The notes under the pieces: model-generated
Databases searched by the model: none
What the model saw: the letters and a program-made list of their open reading frames with translations, nothing else
What the model was told of the DNA's origin: nothing
Program-made: the position numbers and the translations under genes
Source of the DNA: Trichodesmium sp. MAG_R02
GTDB taxonomy: Bacteria > Cyanobacteriota > Cyanobacteriia > Cyanobacteriales > Microcoleaceae
Length of the DNA stretch: 34,066 bases
Assembly: GCA_023356605.1 (NCBI GenBank)
Contig: JAKQYE010000039.1
Span: 1-34,066 of the forward strand
Reading direction: 5' to 3'
Shown: positions 3,150 through 26,876 of the stretch, one piece after another
Numbering within the stretch: position 1 is the stretch's first letter
How the letters are laid out: every line of letters starts with the position of its first letter

Positions 3150-4439
3150 TTAACTAACCGGAAAAGGTTCAGTTTTACTTTGGCCGTTTAGAGTGATTTT
3201 AATCTGAAACACTTTTCCTTTTTTTATATTACTTTCAAGTTTTTCGATATTCATAGTTGCAGGCTTGCTAGGATTAGGAGGAATAAAAAGCTGATTATCT
3301 CCTGTTTTAGCTGTATTTGAAGTCAAAACTTTACCAGAAGGGTTGAGTAACGCTAATTCTAAACCAGAGGGTAAACTTCTTGTATCTACTCCATGAGGAA
3401 TTAGTTTAAAAGACAGCTTTATGTCTTGATTTTCTTTTCCTTGTTTAATCTCAATCATTAGAACAAATCTTTGATTATCTAATTCAATTATTTTCCCTCT
3501 GTTGAATTGAATAGATTGCTCTTTTTTAGATAGCTGATTAGCATCTGCTCTTGGTCTTCGCGCACTAGAAACTAATATTTTTTCAGGTTCAAGCCAATTA
3601 ACATCTAAAAGTTTTTCAAGCCGTTCCCTATAATAATTAATTTGATCATCATGATGATCAGCACACAACTTCGAGTATAACTGCTCCCGCCAATTATGCT
3701 TCGACATCAATGCCGCCCATTTAGGAAAAGCCACTTCTGAATCATCAATAGGTTCGGAGTTAGTCACTAATAACCTGGGAGAGTAACCACGAGGTTTACC
3801 CAAAACCTCCGAGATGCGATCAAACTCATTATCGGATAACTGTGGGAGCGCCGAGACTTCTGCCCTTTCTGTTTCCTGAAATTGACGGGCAACCCACATC
3901 ACAGTCAAATCCTCAATTAACAACTCCCCTGGAACCGAATAGTTGCGCAAAACTGGGTCATATTCTGCCTTTTGTTTAAGAGTTTTATGAGAAATGAAGC
4001 CCCAGATCCTTAGCCACCTCTGCTCCAAATTAACCTGCACTCCCAAATAATAGTCTGCCAGCCAATTTGGAATATCCACCCACTCTTGAGGCACGGAAAA
4101 TTCATCCGTATCTATGGTCTCCTGGGGAATCAATGCTAGGCGGGTATGGCCGATAGTCAAAGCAGTCCCGTTGACAAATTCCCAAATACTAGGCAAATCT
4201 TCAGCGCTTGGCCAAATATTAAACTCTTCCTCTATAGGCGCCTCCATCCGAAGCCAATTTGTAAAACAATTTAACACTAAACGATTAATTAAGGCATGAC
4301 GGCGGGCTACATCATAAGAATAGTCTGAATTGTTGGGGGATGCTGCCTCTAGATCTTCTGGGGTGATTTCCAGAAAAACTTGTTCTGGATATATTGCTGT
4401 TAACTTTTTGATTAAACTAGACATTTTTGTTGCCTCCAC
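3150..4439 (-). CDS. DUF1822 family protein
   Basis: The 429-aa ORF matches my recollection of the cyanobacterial DUF1822 family (WEFVNGTALTIGHTRLALIPQE, VPQEWVDIPNWLADYYLGVQVN, RIWGFISH). The track start is a GTG overlapping the upstream TAG stop (TAGTG). A more likely start is ATG at 4424, which has GGAGG 7-8 nt upstream. Either start is tightly coupled to the sigma-like gene. Confidence 0.75.
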   Translation of the reverse strand: MEATKMSSLIKKLTAIYPEQVFLEITPEDLEAASPNNSDYSYDVARRHALINRLVLNCFTNWLRMEAPIEEEFNIWPSAEDLPSIWEFVNGTALTIGHTRLALIPQETIDTDEFSVPQEWVDIPNWLADYYLGVQVNLEQRWLRIWGFISHKTLKQKAEYDPVLRNYSVPGELLIEDLTVMWVARQFQETERAEVSALPQLSDNEFDRISEVLGKPRGYSPRLLVTNSEPIDDSEVAFPKWAALMSKHNWREQLYSKLCADHHDDQINYYRERLEKLLDVNWLEPEKILVSSARRPRADANQLSKKEQSIQFNRGKIIELDNQRFVLMIEIKQGKENQDIKLSFKLIPHGVDTRSLPSGLELALLNPSGKVLTSNTAKTGDNQLFIPPNPSKPATMNIEKLESNIKKGKVFQIKITLNGQSKTEPFPVS

Positions 4440-5971
4440 TAATGAATGTTTTCTTGGAAAATATGAATTAAAAACTCGTCAACTAAGTCACTAGTTTTTT
4501 TCTTCAAGGGTTCAGAGGATGCTAGGGAAATTTCTAATTTCTCCTCTAGCCATTGTAAAATTTTGGTAACTAAAACTTGAAAAACATCCTCAATTTTCTC
4601 TTTTTCAGGATCAGTAAGGCTGAACTCTGGAGTATTTGTATTGAAAGGTTTGCGCTTTTCCAATTTAAAAGGTTTGCGCTTTATATGCAATTCAAGTATT
4701 TCTTGGGACGAGGGTTCCAACTGCTGCCATATTTTTAGAAACGATTGGTAAACCAGGGAGGAAAAATGCTTTTCATTATTTTTGCGCACCTTATTAACTA
4801 ACTGAGATGTATTCGCATCCAATTTTTTTTGAGCACGCAACTCCTCCACTTTTTCACTCATTCCTTGCCTCTGACAAAATTCTTCCAGCCACTTTTTATT
4901 ACTCTTATTAATTCGACGACTAACCTGAGATTTGTTTTCTTGATACAGTTCGGCAATCCCATCCATTGAAAGCTCAAAAACATACAATAAAATCAGTGAA
5001 CCATATTCTTTGCTATTTGAATTATCTAGTAAATCGTCGCTTTCTTGAAGATTGATCATGGTAGTATCTGCTTCCCAATTGTATCTTTCTTCAGGAGTTA
5101 CGTCTAGAAATGTTGTCCCTTCACCATTTTTGATATGATCATCTAAGCTAATTTCCTTCGGGCGATAATTATATTGATACAGCGCCTCAATAGCATTTTC
5201 TAAACATTGGTGAATAAACTCAGCATTGACCTGTGAATTATCCTGTTTTAATTCTGGCGATCGCCTCCGCTGCAGAATCGGATATCTTTCTGCCATTGCC
5301 TCTAACTGCTCCTGTGTTGGTGGGTTATATTTTTCCCCTTTTACCGGAGCATAAACTTCCTTAAAGCATTCCCAAGCTAAGAAATAACTTTCTAGTTTGA
5401 TATTGGGATAGCCAGAAAATTTTAAAGCTTGCTTAAGTTTCTTTCCACTGAATGTATATAGTATCCGGTATTTTCTAGATTTTTCTAGTTGTATTTCAGC
5501 ATCTTTCAAACGTAACAATTTTTGAAAGACTTGATCTCTAATTTTATGTTTTATATCATTATAAATATAACCATATGTACCTCGACTGCTATTGTATGTT
5601 GCAAAAAATTTGCCTGGCTCAGAAGCAATTTTAAATCCCTCTTGATAGATATCCTCTAAACCTAATGAACCGGAATACTTAAATTGATCATAATTATTAT
5701 AAAACTCCCTAGCTGCTTTCTGCGCAATATGGCATAAATAAGCTTGCAAATGTTTAACTGCAAATTTGTCATTGCCATTGCGAAACTGTTCAACAAAAAT
5801 CACCAAAGCTTCTTCCGGGTTTAAACCTGGTTTAGACTCTAGCATTTTTTGCAAACTGTGTTTGAGACCTGTTTCTATTTTCCACCTTAGTTTTCCTGAA
5901 CTATCCAAAATAGGCCAACAGCAAAACAACGAAATTAAGTCTTTGTCCATGAAAATCACTCCTCCCATCAC
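4439..5971 (-). CDS. Atypical long sigma-70-like protein (region 2-like and region 4-like segments)
   Basis: 510-aa ORF. GLEDIYQEGFKIASEPGKFF...YGYIYNDIKHKIRDQV resembles sigma70 region 2. ILLYVFELSMDGIAELYQENKSQVSRRINKSNKKW resembles the region 4 HTH. The probable true start is ATG at 5950 (MDKDLISLF), with GGGAGGAG 8 nt upstream. Confidence 0.6.
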   Translation of the reverse strand: MMGGVIFMDKDLISLFCCWPILDSSGKLRWKIETGLKHSLQKMLESKPGLNPEEALVIFVEQFRNGNDKFAVKHLQAYLCHIAQKAAREFYNNYDQFKYSGSLGLEDIYQEGFKIASEPGKFFATYNSSRGTYGYIYNDIKHKIRDQVFQKLLRLKDAEIQLEKSRKYRILYTFSGKKLKQALKFSGYPNIKLESYFLAWECFKEVYAPVKGEKYNPPTQEQLEAMAERYPILQRRRSPELKQDNSQVNAEFIHQCLENAIEALYQYNYRPKEISLDDHIKNGEGTTFLDVTPEERYNWEADTTMINLQESDDLLDNSNSKEYGSLILLYVFELSMDGIAELYQENKSQVSRRINKSNKKWLEEFCQRQGMSEKVEELRAQKKLDANTSQLVNKVRKNNEKHFSSLVYQSFLKIWQQLEPSSQEILELHIKRKPFKLEKRKPFNTNTPEFSLTDPEKEKIEDVFQVLVTKILQWLEEKLEISLASSEPLKKKTSDLVDEFLIHIFQENIH

Positions 5972-11704: not shown

Positions 11705-12553
11705 TTACCTTGTATCGCTCATAATAGTTTGCAATTTTTCTTCTAGTTGCTCAATTCTGTCAACTAAAGCACGAATTACGGTAGCTTCTGTATCTGGTAA
11801 TTTTCCATGTTCTAGAACTTCAGCCCGTTGACCAGATTTCGATACGACTTTACCAGGTATACCGACAACGGTGCAGTCAGAAGGAACATGACGCAATACA
11901 ATAGAACCAGCTCCGATACGAACGTTATCACCAATGTTGATATTTCCTAGTACCTTGGCACCAGCACCAACTACAACATTTTTGCCAATAGTGGGATGTC
12001 GCTTACCAGTTTCTTTTCCTGTACCACCAAGAGTGACACCCTGATAAATTAATGAGTAATCTCCAACAATTGCTGTTTCACCAATAACCACTCCCATACC
12101 ATGATCAATAAATACTCCTTGTCCAATTTCTGCCCCTGGGTGAATTTCTATTCCTGTGAAGAACCGTCCCAAATGAGAAATCAAACGTGGAATTAAAGGT
12201 ACTCTCTGAGAGTACAATTTATGAGAAAGGCGGTGTAATAATAAAGCATGTAAACCAGGGTAGCAAAATAATACTTCCATCCAGTTCCGTGCTGCTGGAT
12301 CTCGCTCGAAAATTATCTGAAAATCTTTTAAGAGTGTACTTATTTTAGGAAAGGTAAAATATTTGTACCAAAATCTATGACAACCAGAGGAAGAAAGTTC
12401 TCTACCAAATTCTAATATGATATTTTCTGGAGAAAATTCGGCCTCAGGCTTTGGTGTGACTTGAGGCTTCAAGTTATCTTGGCATTTTTTCAAGGTAGAA
12501 TTATGACTTGTATTAGCTAGGGTGCAAGTATTGTCAGTCAGTAGAGTGGTCAT
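11705..12553 (-). CDS. cysE: Serine O-acetyltransferase (nif-associated CysE / NifP)
   Basis: Left-handed beta-helix hexapeptide repeats: GAEIGQGVFIDHGMGVVIGETAIVGDYSLIYQGVTLGG...RHPTIGKNVVVGAGAKVLGNINIGDNVRIGAGSIVL. The gene is divergent from nifB. Confidence 0.9.
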   Translation of the reverse strand: MTTLLTDNTCTLANTSHNSTLKKCQDNLKPQVTPKPEAEFSPENIILEFGRELSSSGCHRFWYKYFTFPKISTLLKDFQIIFERDPAARNWMEVLFCYPGLHALLLHRLSHKLYSQRVPLIPRLISHLGRFFTGIEIHPGAEIGQGVFIDHGMGVVIGETAIVGDYSLIYQGVTLGGTGKETGKRHPTIGKNVVVGAGAKVLGNINIGDNVRIGAGSIVLRHVPSDCTVVGIPGKVVSKSGQRAEVLEHGKLPDTEATVIRALVDRIEQLEEKLQTIMSDTR

Positions 12554-12696
12554 TTCAATTATCAGTTATCAAGTACCGGTGCCTCCAATAATAAGGAGGT
12601 TTGAAGCCTTATTTCTTGCTTATGGATCAAATAAGGTCTTGCTTAATGGATCAAATAAGGGATTTCGTGTTTGACAAGGATGTTTGCTTTTTAATG

Positions 12697-13506
12697 TTTA
12701 TATCAAGTGTATTGGAAATTATTAAGAAATATTTTCTGCTCAGTGTTTATTGAATTTATTAGATTTGTACTCAAAATTTTAAATCTTTGATTTAGAAGGT
12801 ATTACAGATATGTTTTAAATATATTTTGGGGTATATGTTCTAGTATTTTTATAGTATGCACGAGTATTTATTGAATAATGCACTAGCATTTTTGTACTCA
12901 AGGTTAATACTTTTATTTCAGGATGTTTTGGGGATTTTAAGTAGAGTTTTCTCTGAAATCAAAATTTGTACTCAACTTTAGTTGAATTCATAACTATAGT
13001 GAAAATTTCAAAAAAAAACTCAGAATCTATCTACTTAATTCTGAAAAAACTGCTAAGTTAATTACAGAAACTCCAAGTTTGGAGTTAAATGTTTAGTGAC
13101 CAATAGTGGAGTTGAGACTATATTTGTTAACTTAAGATTATTTTTGAATATTGTTTGTTCTAAACAATAGACAAAAACTGATAGATTGTATACAATAATG
13201 AAAGATTGAGTTAAAATAAAAGGTGTATGAGTACAGAGCTATGGATAAAAAATGATAGTTAAAAAGATAGTAAAATAATTGATATATATAAGTTATAGCA
13301 TGAGTACATAGTAGCATGTACCATTACCCCATAAATACATATACCCCACTTAAAAAATACAAGTACCTATACCCCAATAAAAAATTTTAGATATCCTCAT
13401 TTAATTTTAACCATTAAATTAGAAAGATTTGAGTACAAAATTAATAATAATAATAAATACTAACTGCGGTTTTTCAAAGGGTAAGTCTAAAAACCACTGA
13501 TATAAA
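12697..13506. promoter_or_regulatory. Mirror-symmetric bidirectional control region between cysE/nifP and nifB
   Basis: TGTACTCA at 12766, 12893 and 12967. TGAGTACA at 13228, 13301 and 13430. TTGGGGTAT at 12826-12834 against ATACCCCAA at 13369-13377. TTTATATCA at 12697-12705 against TGATATAAA at 13498-13506. All pairs are centred on ~13101. Confidence 0.6.
13498..13506 (+). promoter_or_regulatory. Extended -10-like element TGATATAAA upstream of nifB
   Basis: TGnTATAAA lies 137 nt upstream of the nifB ATG. An exact mirror copy (12697-12705, minus strand) lies 144 nt upstream of cysE. Confidence 0.4.
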
Positions 13507-13642
13507 AAATATAACACTATAACGCCGGACACCTAATTCACTGATGGAACACTGCCAATGTTCAGGTCAAGAGAAAAAGTGTATCGACGCGAGTAATCCG
13601 TCAACCACGGCGACAGCTAGTACAATACAAGTGGAAACTTAG

Positions 13643-15112
13643 ATGTTACAGCCAACAGAAGTATCTTCCAAGCCAACAGTCAACAGCTTCGCAAATATGA
13701 TAGCAACTCCAGAAAAAAAATCTGGTAATTGCGAATCAAAGGGTTGCGGAAGCAGTGAACAGGAAATTTCCCTCAGTATTCAAGAGCGTATTGCTAATCA
13801 TCCTTGCTATAGTCAAGACGCACATCATCATTATGCTAGGATGCATGCTCCAGTTGCACCAGCTTGCAATATTCAATGTAATTACTGTAACCGTAAATAC
13901 GATTGTGCAAATGAAAGTCGTCCTGGTGTAGTAAGTGAACTGCTAACTCCTGAAGAAGCAGCTCACAAAGCTCTAGTAATTGCTGGAAAAATTCCCCAAA
14001 TGACGGTTATGGGCATTGCTGGCCCTGGTGACCCATTAGCGAACCCAGAAAAAACATTCCGCACTTTTGAGCTTGTAGCTGAGAAAGCTCCAGATATCAA
14101 GCTTTGCTTGTCAACCAATGGTCTAGCTTTACCTGAGTATGTAGATCGGATTAAAGCGTTAAATATTGATCACGTCACTCTAACAATTAATATGGTTGAC
14201 CCTGAAATCGGGGTAAAGATTTATCCTTGGGTTCATTACAAGCGGAAACGCTATAAAGGAATTGAAGGGGTCAAAATTTTGCATCAAAAGCAAATGGAAT
14301 CTTTAGACTTACTCAGAGAAGCTGATGTTCTCTGCAAAGTTAATTCAGTGATGATTCCTGGTATTAATGACAAACATCTAGAAGAGGTGAACAGGGTTGT
14401 TCGCTCTAAGGGTGCATTTATCCATAATATCATGCCCCTAATTTCTTCACCAGAACATGGCACTTACTTTGGCTTAAATGGTCAGCGTGGTCCAACTACT
14501 GAAGAATTAAAAGTCTTACAGGATAAATGTGATGTTGGTGGTATGAAAATGATGCGCCACTGTCGTCAATGCCGTGCAGATGCAGTTGGTCTCCTAGGTG
14601 AAGACCGCAGTAAGGAATTCACAAAGGAAGCTGTTATGGATATGACTTCAGAGTATGACATACAAAAGCGTAAAGAATTTCATGCTGGAATTGAAGGTTT
14701 CCGCAGTAAACTAGCAAAAGCTAAGGCTTCAGATCCAACTACTGAGAAAGTTGAGGAAGCTGGTCCGCCAATACTATTGGCAGTAGCAAGTAAGGGCAAC
14801 GGATTAGTTAATCAACACTTTGGTCATGCTAAAGAGTTTATGATCTATGAAGTAGATGGTGTGAATGTTAAATTTATTGCTCACCGGAAAGTTGACCACT
14901 ATTGTCTAGGTGGTTATGGTGAAGAGGGAAGTCTGCAGAATATCATTAAGGCAATTTCTGATTGCAAAGCTGTTCTTGTTTCTAAAATTGGTGATAGTCC
15001 AAAGGAAAAGGTACATAATGCAGGAATAGAGGTAGTTGAGACTTATGATGTTATTGAAACAGTTGCTTTAGATTTTTACAAGCAATTCATTGGAGAACTA
15101 CAGCCAGTATAG
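13643..15112 (+). CDS. nifB: FeMo-cofactor biosynthesis radical-SAM protein NifB with C-terminal NifX-like domain
   Basis: [14 protein letters not shown] radical-SAM motif, HPCYS, and a C-terminal [17 protein letters not shown] NifX/NifB-type domain. Confidence 0.95.
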
Positions 15113-18225: not shown

Positions 18226-19269
<1,044 letters not shown>

Positions 19270-24065: not shown

Positions 24066-26876
24066 ATGGCTATGATAACCCCAGGCAAAGTTGCCGAACT
24101 TTTAAATGAGCCAGGTTGCGAACACAACCATCAAAAAAATAACGAAGATAAAAAACAGAAAGGCTGCCAGCAACAAGCAGCACCCGGAGCTGCTCAAGGG
24201 GGTTGTGCCTTTGATGGTGCTAGTATTGCTCTAGTTCCAATTACAGATGCAGCTCACCTGGTTCACGGTCCTTTAGGTTGTTCCGGTAACTCCTGGGGAG
24301 CTCGTGGAAGTCTTTCCTCCAGTTCCCATCTATACAAAATGGGTTTCACCACTGATATGGGTGAAAATGACATTATTATGGGCGGAGAGAAAAAATTATT
24401 GAAGGCGATCGCTGAGATAAAAAAACGCTATCAACCCCCTGCTATATTTGTCTACGCCACCTGTGTTACGGCTTTGATTGGAGATGACTTAGAAACGGTT
24501 TGTCAAGTCGCTACTAAAAAATTAGAACTTCCGGTCATTCCTGTTAATTCTCCTGGTTTTATTGGGAGCAAAAATCTAGGTAACCGGGTTGGTGCAGAAG
24601 CTTTATTAGATAATGTAGTAGGTACGGCAGAACCTGAATTTACAACTCCCTATGATATTAACCTAATTGGTGAATATAATATTGCTGGGGAAATGTGGGC
24701 CATGTTACCCCTGTTTGAAAAACTCGGGATTCGGGTATTGTCAAAAATTACAGGAGATGCTACCTACAAAGAGGTTTGTTACGCTCACCGTGCTAAACTT
24801 AACATTATGATCTGCTCTAAAGCTATGATCAATATGGCACGGAAAATGGAGGAAGAATATGGTATTCCTTACATTGAAGAGTCATTTTATGGTGTTGCTG
24901 ATATTAACAACTGCCTCCGAAATATCGCTGCAAAAATTGGAGATGCTGACTTACAAGAACGGACAGAAAAACTTATTGCTGAAGAAACAGCTATTCTTAA
25001 AGAAATATTAGAACCATATCGCCAACGTCTCAAAGGCAAAAAAGTTGTACTTTATACTGGTGGGGTGAAAAGTTGGTCTATTATTTCGGCAGCTAAGGAT
25101 TTAGAGATGGATGTGGTTGCTACTAGCACTAAGAAAAGTACAGAAGAGGATAAGTCTAAAATCAAAAAGTTGCTCGGTAAAGATGGTATTTTACTAGAAA
25201 AAGGTAATGCTGAAATTCTATTAAAAGTAATTGCCGAGACTAAAGCTGATATGCTTATAGCAGGTGGCCGTAATCAGTATACTGCCCTCAAAGCTAGAAT
25301 TCCCTTTTTACACATTAACCAAGAACGCCATCATCCCTATGCTGGATATCATGGGATGATAGAAATGGCTAAAGAATTAGACGAAGCTCTCTATAGTCCG
25401 GTTTGGGAACAGGTGAGACAACCGGCACCTTGGTTGGAAGAATGTCAGTTAGATGATGTTTTGGCTGTTGAAACTTTACCAAGTTTAACTAATATTCCAC
25501 CAACAACAGTTAATTTTCATAAAAGCTCATTATCCACAAATCCTCTGAAACTCAGTCAACCTTTGGGTGCGGCTTTAGCATACTTAGGAATTAAGGGGAT
25601 GATGCCAATGTTCCATGGTACTCAAGGTTGTACTGCTTTTGCTAAGGTATTATTGGTGAATCATTTCCAGGAAGCTATTCCCTTGTCTACTACTGCTATG
25701 AGTGAAGTGACGACTATTTTGGGAGGGGAGGATAATATTGATAAAGCGCTGCTGACTCAGCTTGAGAAGTCAAAACCAGAGGTGATTGGTTTGTTGACCA
25801 CTGGTTTAACTGAAACCAGGGGGGATGACATGGAGCGCATTCTTAAGAAATTTAGGGAAGATCATCCGGAGTTAGATGGGTTCCCTGTATTAAATGTTTC
25901 TAGTCCAGATTATAAGGGTTCTGCTCAGGACGGTTTTGCTACTACGGTAGAATGTATAGTAGCTTATGATTATGGCGAGCCTATTCCGACGGAAACTAAA
26001 AAACCTTTTATTACAATTTTAGCTGGTTCTTCTCTTGCCCCTGGAGATGTGCAGGAAGTTAAGGATATCGTAGAAGATTTTGGCTTAACTCCAATAGTTG
26101 TACCGGACTTATCTCAGTCTTTGGATGGACATTTAATTGATGATATTTATAGTGCCACAAGCTCAGGTGGTACTACAATAGAGGAGTTGCGTAATTTACG
26201 TCACTCATGTTTCACCTTTGCTATTGGGGAGAGTATGCGGAATGCTGCTACAATTTTGCAAGAAAAATTTGGGACTCAATATCAAGTGTTCCCTCGGTTG
26301 ACAGGTTTAGGTGCTGTAGATGGTTTTATGTTAAAATTGTCTCAGCTGATTGTATCTCGAAGTGACCCCCATTTTGATCTGAACTGCGAAGTGCCTGAGA
26401 AATACCAACGTCAACGCCGTCAGTTACAGGATGCTATGTTGGATACTCACTTCTATTTTGGGCATAAGCAAGTGTCTATTGCTCTGGAACCAGATTTACT
26501 TTGGGCAACAAGTTGGTTTTTACGGGAAATGGGGGCAGATATTTATGCTACTGTAACAACTACGCGATCGCCATTACTCGAAAAATTACCCACAGAAAAT
26601 GTGATAGTTGGGGACTTGGGAGACTTGGAAGAAGTAGTAGCAGGTTCGGATTTGCTAATTACCAATTCTCATGGTAAGATAATATCTGAGAAGTTAAATA
26701 TTGCTCTCTATCGGATGGGAATGCCAATCTACGATCGCCTTGGCAATGGTCAACGTTGTTATGTTGGTTATCGTGGTACAATGAATTTATTATTTGATAT
26801 TGGTAATATTTTCCTAGAGCAAGAGGAATCAAAAATTCACACCAATGATTATTCATTATTAAGCAGCCAGACATAA
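24066..26876 (+). CDS. nifEN: Fused NifE-NifN FeMo-cofactor assembly scaffold (936 aa, single ORF)
   Basis: The N-terminal ~450 aa is NifE-like (GCAFDGASIALVPITDAAHLVHGPLGC, ATCVTALIGDD). The C-terminal ~445 aa is NifN-like (NPLKLSQPLGAALAYLGIKGMMPMFHGTQGCTAF). The two halves are joined by a ~35-aa linker (nt ~25430-25536) with no stop. Confidence 0.9.
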   Translation: MAMITPGKVAELLNEPGCEHNHQKNNEDKKQKGCQQQAAPGAAQGGCAFDGASIALVPITDAAHLVHGPLGCSGNSWGARGSLSSSSHLYKMGFTTDMGENDIIMGGEKKLLKAIAEIKKRYQPPAIFVYATCVTALIGDDLETVCQVATKKLELPVIPVNSPGFIGSKNLGNRVGAEALLDNVVGTAEPEFTTPYDINLIGEYNIAGEMWAMLPLFEKLGIRVLSKITGDATYKEVCYAHRAKLNIMICSKAMINMARKMEEEYGIPYIEESFYGVADINNCLRNIAAKIGDADLQERTEKLIAEETAILKEILEPYRQRLKGKKVVLYTGGVKSWSIISAAKDLEMDVVATSTKKSTEEDKSKIKKLLGKDGILLEKGNAEILLKVIAETKADMLIAGGRNQYTALKARIPFLHINQERHHPYAGYHGMIEMAKELDEALYSPVWEQVRQPAPWLEECQLDDVLAVETLPSLTNIPPTTVNFHKSSLSTNPLKLSQPLGAALAYLGIKGMMPMFHGTQGCTAFAKVLLVNHFQEAIPLSTTAMSEVTTILGGEDNIDKALLTQLEKSKPEVIGLLTTGLTETRGDDMERILKKFREDHPELDGFPVLNVSSPDYKGSAQDGFATTVECIVAYDYGEPIPTETKKPFITILAGSSLAPGDVQEVKDIVEDFGLTPIVVPDLSQSLDGHLIDDIYSATSSGGTTIEELRNLRHSCFTFAIGESMRNAATILQEKFGTQYQVFPRLTGLGAVDGFMLKLSQLIVSRSDPHFDLNCEVPEKYQRQRRQLQDAMLDTHFYFGHKQVSIALEPDLLWATSWFLREMGADIYATVTTTRSPLLEKLPTENVIVGDLGDLEEVVAGSDLLITNSHGKIISEKLNIALYRMGMPIYDRLGNGQRCYVGYRGTMNLLFDIGNIFLEQEESKIHTNDYSLLSSQT

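Follow-up and report, generated by a model that had tools for sequence, protein, structure and literature searches.

Two divergent modules of the probable CnfR-dependent nif promoter type between cysE (nifP) and nifB in a Trichodesmium genome

The spacer between the divergent genes cysE (nifP) and nifB of Trichodesmium sp. MAG_R02 (assembly GCA_023356605.1, contig JAKQYE010000039.1) very probably holds two independent, back-to-back copies of the canonical cyanobacterial promoter of nitrogen fixation (nif) genes, the one dependent on the activator CnfR (PatB). The window, i.e., the whole stretch of 34,066 nucleotides (nt) that was analysed, contains a cyanobacterial nif cluster whose two divergent gene sets are arranged around this spacer. 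On the minus strand, cysE/nifP opens a leftward operon that continues with an asr1405-family gene, a DUF2949 gene and nifZ; nifB, on the plus strand, is followed by nifS, nifU, nifH, nifD, nifK, a fused nifEN, hesA and others. The spacer has a length of 1089 bp (3% of the window) and a G+C content of 28.5%, as compared to 36.4% window-wide. The best explanation of its content is that one copy drives the nifB-...-nifHDK-nifEN operon and the other drives the nifP (cysE) operon. This promoter type has already been published, in its known genomic context, and finding it here is a rediscovery, with nothing new in the promoter itself. The features are as follows.

11705-12553, minus strand: cysE/nifP coding sequence, serine O-acetyltransferase (NCBIfam TIGR01172 cysE, E = 1e-75)
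12554-12690, minus strand: putative nifP 5' leader, placed from the position of the -10 element
12697-12705, minus strand: nifP extended -10 element TGATATAAA, starting 68 bp downstream of the start of motif 1C
12745-12773, minus strand: nifP motif 1C, TGAGTACA at 12766-12773, with the conserved 3' extension AAnnTAATAAAnnnAATAAAC (arm alignment)
12826-12872, minus strand: nifP motif-2 block, with 2B AAATACTAGAACATATACCCCAA intact and 2A TAAATACTCGTGCATAC degenerate in its C-run (arm alignment and cross-phylum rows)
12893-12900, minus strand: nifP motif 1B TGAGTACA, exact, 127 bp from 1C
12967-12974, minus strand: nifP motif 1A TGAGTACA, exact, 74 bp from 1B
12975-13227, no strand: central spacer between the modules, with flanks conserved in the clade and a middle of variable length (alignment, blastn)
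13228-13235, plus strand: nifB motif 1A TGAGTACA, exact, at -415 from the nifB ATG and identical in T. erythraeum
13301-13308, plus strand: nifB motif 1B TGAGTACA, exact, 73 bp after 1A
13318-13377, plus strand: nifB motif-2 block GTACCATTACCCCATAAATACATATACCCCACTTAAAAAATACAAGTACCTATACCCCAA, with ACCCCA cores at 13326, 13343 and 13371, corresponding to the published 2A/2B
13430-13460, plus strand: nifB motif 1C, TGAGTACA at 13430-13437, with the conserved 3' extension AAAATTAATAATAATAATAAATAC, 129 bp after 1B
13498-13506, plus strand: nifB extended -10 element TGATATAAA, starting 68 bp after the start of 1C
13507-13642, plus strand: putative nifB 5' leader, with the highest conservation of all non-coding sequence in the region
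13643-15112, plus strand: nifB coding sequence (NCBIfam TIGR01290, E = 2.9e-196)

The most conspicuous elements of the spacer are its repeated boxes. TGTACTCA occurs at 12766, 12893 and 12967, and its complement-strand counterpart TGAGTACA at 13228, 13301 and 13430; TTGGGGTAT at 12826 is mirrored by ATACCCCAA at 13369, TGGGGTATATGT at 12827 by ACATATACCCCA at 13337, and the extended -10 element TGATATAAA at 13498 by its reverse complement at 12697. In this window, the midpoints of all mirrored pairs lie within 1 bp of each other. A preliminary description of the locus, made from the letters of the sequence without database searches, had listed the boxes, mirrors and -10 elements, and every one of these coordinates was correct on recheck, as were the box spacings of 127 and 74 bp on the left against 129 and 73 bp on the right. 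Exact TGAGTACA octamers number six in the whole window, both strands counted, against 1.07 +/- 1.01 expected from 100 dinucleotide-preserving shuffles (the highest shuffle had four, and none of the 100 reached six). All six are within the 1089-bp spacer and sorted by strand, with three minus-strand copies nearest cysE and three plus-strand copies nearest nifB. One-mismatch variants of TGAGTACA are not enriched in the window (28 observed, 28.1 expected), so that the signal is the exact box. Measured from start to start, TGATATAAA follows the gene-proximal box at exactly 68 bp in both arms.

Published definitions of the nif promoter motifs match the window letter for letter. Three TGAGTACA motifs (1A, 1B and 1C), with the A/C-rich motifs 2A and 2B between 1B and 1C, are described upstream of Anabaena variabilis nifB1, nifB2 and nifP and in the nifB-nifP spacer of Leptolyngbya boryana (bioRxiv 10.1101/2025.04.01.646610), and such promoters are reported to have an extended -10 element, to lack a -35 element, and to depend on CnfR (PMC8510180; PMC5943405). 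In the window, the three gene-oriented TGAGTACA boxes, for which the published type has distances of about 71-74 and about 114-129 bp, are spaced by 73 and 129 bp at nifB and by 74 and 127 bp at nifP. Two A/C-rich motifs, partly redundant in the published type, lie between 1B and 1C in both arms, with 2A of nifP degenerate; both blocks can be aligned with their counterparts across the phylum, and the GGGGTAT/ATACCCC boxes noted earlier are the cores of motifs 2A and 2B. Both arms have an extended -10 of the form TGnTATAA without a -35 hexamer, and both stand upstream of nifB or nifP, where the arrangement is conserved in other diazotrophic cyanobacteria.

CnfR dependence has been established for the orthologous promoters of L. 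boryana, A. variabilis and Nostoc PCC 7120 (PMC8510180; bioRxiv 10.1101/2025.04.01.646610; PMC5943405), and CnfR is reported to bind in vitro to fragments that hold the whole region (Rachedi et al. 2023, cited in bioRxiv 10.1101/2025.04.01.646610). A 2026 preprint takes the nif cis-elements as a standard marker for the canonical nif clusters of cyanobacteria. The proposal of two back-to-back, activator-dependent promoters with a shared architecture is sustained by the motif match and by conservation; CnfR/PatB had been named as the candidate activator, and the published cis-element of CnfR/PatB-dependent promoters does match the boxes, which would make CnfR the probable activator here as well. 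A tool-free reading of the raw sequence had in this case recovered the complete cis-architecture of a nif promoter together with the right regulator, and it can serve as a positive control.

A two-hexamer sigma-70 scan found no -35 partner for either TGATATAAA, and the hexamer at the nifB -35 position reads AGGGTA. Of 11 classical sigma-70 sites returned by the scan (expectation 7.5 +/- 3.0), none overlaps the TGATATAAA elements. Positions of transcription starts can be predicted from the -10 elements. In 10 of 13 Nostocales-type nifP modules, the ATG comes 40-42 nt after the final base of the -10 hexamer. The usual distance from this hexamer to the start of transcription is 6-8 nt, and subtraction places the predicted nifP start 33-35 nt before the ATG. 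The start of A. variabilis nifP has been mapped at -33/-34 (bioRxiv 10.1101/2025.04.01.646610). The same calculation for Nostocales nifB gives leaders of about 260-340 nt, and the mapped nifB1 start is at -328. For the present locus, the predicted starts are at about 13514 for nifB (leader of about 130 nt) and at about 12690 for nifP (leader of about 137 nt), so that precise -10 elements and transcription starts are now proposed for both operons. The main text of the Trichodesmium differential RNA-seq paper (PMC4143802) makes no mention of nif genes.

When compared with each other, the two arms form a gapless colinear alignment of about 300 bp and share more than the boxes listed above, namely an additional block of about 50 nt, TAAATACnnGTnC...AAAAATACnAGnACnTATACCCCAA, and a 3' extension of the proximal box, TGAGTACAAnnnTAATnA....AATAAA. 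Cross-arm identity is about 0.9-1.0 in the three boxes, 0.69 in the motif-2 block, 0.79 in 1C with its extension and 0.78 in the -10 element; it is 0.34 in the 1A-1B spacer, 0.40 in the 2B-1C spacer and 0.32 in the spacer between 1C and the -10 element. Composition predicts 0.29-0.37 for the spacers, and the observed 0.32-0.40 is the random level, in agreement with the background similarity stated in the preliminary description. Between orthologues, the same spacers have identity of 0.69-0.77, and whole arms of 0.7-0.9. Since motifs and phasing have been kept while the spacers diverged freely, the arms appear to be old paralogous promoters under selection, not the products of a recent duplication. 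The earlier preference for selection on binding sites is borne out by the same two facts, cross-arm conservation of motifs only and similarity of orthologues throughout.

The inverted-repeat geometry of the arms in an AT-rich spacer (28.5% G+C) could suggest a different origin, in which they would be copies of a mobile or dispersed repeat, such as nested miniature inverted-repeat transposable elements (MITEs), or a recent inverted duplication, with no regulatory meaning. A recent inverted duplication should have uniformly similar arms; here, conservation is confined to the motif blocks, the cross-arm spacers are random, and each arm is 70-90% identical to its orthologue. Neither of the hallmarks of a dispersed repeat, many unrelated copies and full-length similarity of the arms, is seen, and there is no further copy of the module in the 34-kb window. 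The distribution of the module among genomes bears on the same question.

Genome footprinting was based on 80 nifB loci from genome assemblies and the window, a set that spans Nostocales, Oscillatoriales, Chroococcales-type unicells, Pseudanabaenales and metagenome-assembled genomes (MAGs) of Synechococcales. The module was found upstream of nifB, at the orthologous position, in about 70 cyanobacterial species across the phylum. In the 77 box triplets obtained from this set, the 1A-1B spacing is 70-74 bp; 10 of them have a 1B-1C spacing of 114-118 bp and the other 67 one of 124-129 bp, with none at 119-123 bp. All but one of the 77 have TGnTATAA at 66-70 bp behind 1C, the distance being 68 bp in 59 triplets, 67 in nine, 69 in four, 66 in three and 70 in one. 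Phylogenetic footprinting, which the preliminary description had put forward as a check, is strongly positive.

A divergent cysE with a module of its own faces nifB in T. erythraeum IMS101, three Dapis genomes, a Microcoleaceae MAG, Prochloraceae, Pseudanabaenales and Mastigocoleus, and also in Lyngbya, Limnoraphis and Crocosphaera, where the distal boxes are more degenerate. This second divergent copy at cysE was seen in every non-heterocystous relative examined, and in the heterocystous species examined no cysE adjoins nifB. At nifP, the offset from 1C to the -10 element is 68-69 bp also in T. erythraeum, the three Dapis genomes and the Microcoleaceae MAG. Twelve arms from the six closest genomes form a colinear, almost gap-free alignment, in which the three boxes, the block TAAATAC...AAAAATAC.AG.AC.T.TA.CCC.A, the 1C extension TAAT.A....AATAAA and TG.TATAA are invariant. 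Relatives of the NifB protein were drawn from a collection with one genome per species; the best match is T. erythraeum IMS101 (92%), followed by three Dapis genomes (89-91%) and a Microcoleaceae MAG (87%). To judge from this ranking, the source of the window is a non-heterocystous filamentous diazotroph of the Trichodesmium/Dapis clade. The architecture is hereby extended to this clade of important marine N2 fixers, in which nif regulation is hard to study genetically.

In a pattern-first scan, metagenome contigs were searched for three boxes at the right spacings, with 113-130 bp allowed between 1B and 1C. The scan returned 120 loci, 56 of which have TGnTATAA 64-72 bp after the triplet and amount to 63 distinct complete modules; 31 of these stand before nifB, 16 before cysE, 12 before other genes and four at contig ends. 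The other 64 loci were set aside, being dense tandem arrays of short period in which TGAGTACA occurs by chance and the -10 element is absent. Genes directly 3' of other complete modules include nifV (L082, L162), a nifZ-nifT fusion (L199), nifH (L114), an asr1405-family gene (L087) and a short-chain dehydrogenase (SDR; L195). Another recurrent gene behind complete modules encodes a membrane protein of about 136-142 aa (MKxKLVxxLTVC...YDRYL...QQQVEMLExLWQQ; L116, L155, L173, L180, L183, L198); the scanned representative, the 136-aa protein of L116, has no NCBIfam family match. This protein may correspond to alr2522, a gene of unknown function that is reported to bind CnfR in Nostoc.

With complete modules before nifV, nifZ-nifT, nifH, the asr1405-family gene and the SDR gene, the module is seen to be re-used across the nif regulon in different lineages. 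All complete modules with identifiable downstream sequence precede nif-regulon genes, except for the one SDR gene and the membrane-protein family, and the other 64 hits are unrelated arrays. As the modules stand almost only before nif-regulon genes, they mark a nif regulon and are not mobile repeats; the MITE alternative is refuted by this distribution, and we consider the probability of a repeat or recent duplication without regulatory meaning to be negligible.

The preliminary description had united all boxes in a single mirror-symmetric lattice of 810 bp. If this were one symmetric bidirectional enhancer, with a single complex centred near 13101 and two halves mirror-phased to co-activate the operons, the agreement of all midpoints within 1 bp would follow; a single regulatory region has been reported for the divergent nifZT2 and nifB2 operons of the A. 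variabilis nif2 cluster (PMC8510180). In the five closest relatives, however, the distance between the innermost boxes, 261 bp here, is 382 bp (L001), 331 bp (L004), 487 bp (L007), 781 bp (L003) and 871 bp (L002), and the residues of these distances modulo 10.5 bp are scattered, with no common helical phase. The middle of the central spacer is an insertion/deletion zone of variable length in the alignment. In heterocystous species, nifP and nifB modules work at separate loci, with nifP having its own mapped start, and the two arms of one genome may belong to different 1B-1C spacing classes (L015, Lyngbya; see below). A symmetric enhancer is on these grounds very improbable. Because the separation of the arms varies in relatives (261-871 bp in the clade) and the loci are separate in heterocystous species, the mirror axis is a by-product of two equal modules set tail to tail; two independent promoter copies, and not a single lattice, are what the comparison supports. 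Start codons had also been described as nearly mirrored (12553 against 13643); their positions are correct, but the symmetry is a coincidence of this genome, as the distance from the nifP -10 element to the ATG varies between 57 and 152 bp across the six closest relatives.

Two further observations concern the region between the innermost boxes. At 13031-13070 there is a nearly invariant block, TCTACTTAATTCTGAAAAAACTGCTAAGTTAATTACAGAA, which includes a plus-strand extended -10-like element, TGCTAAGTT, which five of six clade members have at a distance of 83-85 bp on the distal side of nifP box 1A; it may represent an additional promoter, directed across the region upstream of nifB. In Dapis M126 (L002, 3297-3600) and M172 (L003, 3077-3600), about 247 bp immediately upstream of nifB box 1A have been duplicated, which gives a fourth TGAGTACA box (L002 3346, L003 3345) and a second copy of TGATACATT.

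Spacing within the module is quantised. Of the metagenome modules, 31 have a 1B-1C distance of 114-119 bp and 32 one of 125-128 bp, with none at 120-124 bp. The distribution is bimodal in both samples, 114-119 or 124-129 bp overall with none at 120-123 bp, and the classes, the counts of which are not phylogenetically independent, are one helical turn apart. Arm alignment locates the change in length between motif 2B and 1C. Either class may be found on either arm, and the two can be mixed within a genome, as in L015 (116 vs 127 bp) and Lyngbya (115 vs about 128 bp). In the Microcoleaceae MAG L004, the two arms are 12 and 10 nt shorter than in its relatives with 128/129 bp; an obligatory shared class for both arms, which this case had brought to mind, was rejected in view of the mixed classes in L015 and Lyngbya. 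The fixed spacings (seven turns from 1A to 1B, 11 or 12 turns from 1B to 1C, and 68 bp to the -10 element) imply that bound proteins have to sit on defined faces of the helix. The strict 68-bp offset, the two 1B-1C classes and the independence of the arms could guide CnfR footprinting and spacer-insertion work.

The putative CnfR-dependent module of about 280 bp can be read toward the gene as follows. It begins with 1A, TGAGTACA, followed after 73-74 bp by 1B and then by the A/C-rich motif-2 block with 2A/2B and units resembling AAATACnnGnACCCC; 1C, 127-129 bp after 1B and provided with the TAAT...AATAAA extension, is next, and the extended -10 element TGATATAAA comes last, 68 bp after 1C and without a -35 element. 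A promoter without a -35 element should be unable to fire alone. By analogy with the studied systems, the activator CnfR, a protein with an iron-sulfur (Fe-S) cluster and a helix-turn-helix (HTH) domain, would bind the upstream block under low oxygen and nitrogen limitation and would recruit or activate RNA polymerase at the otherwise silent promoter; the response to oxygen and nitrogen is likewise presumed from these systems.

Several points weigh against the assignment to the CnfR-dependent type. No candidate for cnfR is found among the genes of the 34-kb window. The nifP arm has one intact ACCCC core, as compared to three in the nifB arm. Binding of CnfR and the transcription starts in this organism are presumed by orthology. 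One published passage, taken literally, is in conflict with a 1C located about 80 bp upstream of the putative start, and its numbers fit distances to the ATG instead. Finally, published functional data disagree on which motifs are important. In the L. boryana reporter system in Synechocystis, motif 2 is described as essential and 1B as dispensable; in A. variabilis, 1A and 1B each account for about 50% of the nifB1 activity, and 1A is inhibitory at nifP (all in bioRxiv 10.1101/2025.04.01.646610). Due to this conflict between L. boryana and A. variabilis, CnfR can be regarded only as a candidate reader of TGAGTACA.

The same data could be accommodated by a variant of this architecture in which CnfR reads the motif-2 block, and the three phased boxes serve another factor, architectural or regulatory, that shapes the DNA. 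It would agree with the L. boryana reporter, where a change in 2A/2B abolishes activation by CnfR and a change in 1B has little effect, and with the inhibitory 1A at A. variabilis nifP (both in bioRxiv 10.1101/2025.04.01.646610), as well as with box spacing in whole turns (about seven, then 11 or 12), which is typical of proteins sharing a helical face. Against it, A. variabilis nifB1 expression drops by half when 1A or 1B is lost, and the authors see the boxes as likely CnfR sites (PMC8510180; bioRxiv 10.1101/2025.04.01.646610), CnfR binds whole-region fragments in vitro (Rachedi et al. 2023, cited in bioRxiv 10.1101/2025.04.01.646610), and no second factor is known. We regard a separate reader of the boxes, or CnfR reading them in another mode, as rather unlikely, though less so than the alternatives discussed above. 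Equally tentative is our suggestion that the TGAGTACA triplet may be a phase-locked scaffold and not a simple set of activator sites, with the boxes on one face of wrapped or looped DNA, to judge from the two 1B-1C classes combined with constant distances from 1A to 1B and from 1C to the -10 element; the holder could be a CnfR oligomer, or else a second protein, with CnfR reading the motif-2 block. If true, this would explain the contradictory mutational results in Leptolyngbya and Anabaena.

The closest counterpart of the two divergent CnfR-type promoters is the nifB-nifP spacer of L. boryana, in which nifP and nifB are likewise divergent, both dependent on CnfR, and preceded by the same conserved segments, with segments I-II corresponding to 1B, IV-V to 2A and VI-VII to 2B (Tsujimoto et al. 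2016, Mol Microbiol 101:411, via PMC5943405; bioRxiv 10.1101/2025.04.01.646610). It belongs to a different organism and has a different sequence, and the likeness is drawn from the descriptions in later papers. The nifB1 and nifB2 promoters of A. variabilis ATCC 29413, reported to be activated by CnfR1 and CnfR2, also have three TGAGTACA boxes, A/C-rich motifs and an extended -10 without -35 (Vernon, Pratte & Thiel 2017, as cited in later papers; PMC4284476; PMC8510180). The Nostocales loci examined have 71 bp between 1A and 1B, 127-128 bp between 1B and 1C and 68 bp between 1C and the -10 element, the corresponding values for nifB in this window being 73, 129 and 68 bp. The Nostocales nifB leader is much longer, with a mapped start at -328 vs about 130 nt here, and A. 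variabilis nifB2 shares its single regulatory region with divergent nifZT2, whereas the window has two complete modules. A. variabilis nifP has 1A, 1B, 2A, 2B and 1C upstream of the gene (bioRxiv 10.1101/2025.04.01.646610), but at a separate locus, not facing nifB; here, the nifP leader is about 137-144 nt and NifP has an N-terminal extension of about 70 residues.

A more distant parallel is seen in Proteobacteria. Their NifA/sigma-54 upstream activating sequences are also activator sites for nif promoters that are silent alone, respond to oxygen and nitrogen, and are often bidirectional between divergent operons. The analogy is functional only: the core here is a sigma-70-type extended -10 and not -24/-12, the activator would be an Fe-S/XRE-HTH protein and not an AAA+ enhancer-binding protein, and the motif is TGAGTACA with an A/C-rich block and not TGT-N10-ACA.

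The nifB leader at 13507-13642 is 88-93% identical to those of Trichodesmium and Dapis and 80% identical to that of the Microcoleaceae MAG, and its G+C content is above that of the surroundings. An Rfam scan of 12300-13900 gave nothing above threshold; the predicted fold of the leader RNA has a z-score of -0.89, and none of its 35 predicted pairs covaries. An upstream open reading frame (ORF) of 32 codons, at 13546-13644 and ending at the nifB ATG, is present in the window only. T. erythraeum has ATA in place of its start codon, the other relatives have ACA or ATA, and frame-breaking indels are also present in the relatives; it was therefore rejected as a gene. In the nifP leader there is an exact 15-nt direct repeat, ATGGATCAAATAAGG, at 12622-12636 and 12646-12660, 24 bp apart; in the alignment with the five closest relatives, this tandem duplication is a 24-nt insertion private to this genome.

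Elsewhere in the window, nifE and nifN are fused in a single 936-aa ORF (24066-26876), with a full-length match to the NCBIfam model for bifunctional NifEN. The mechanically called nifH ORF (18238-19269) has 343 aa, and the NifH model begins at residue 49, for which reason the true start is probably about 48 codons 3' of the first ATG. A 510-aa ORF at 4439-5971 was considered as CnfR and rejected, as it has no Fe-S cysteine motif (CxxCxxCxxxC) and its only family matches are weak ones to sigma-70. This ORF, whose weak match resembles sigma-70 region 4, overlaps a DUF1822 gene by one base; the pair spans 3150-5971, upstream of the nif region, and is adjoined by a CHAT-domain protein (563-2926).

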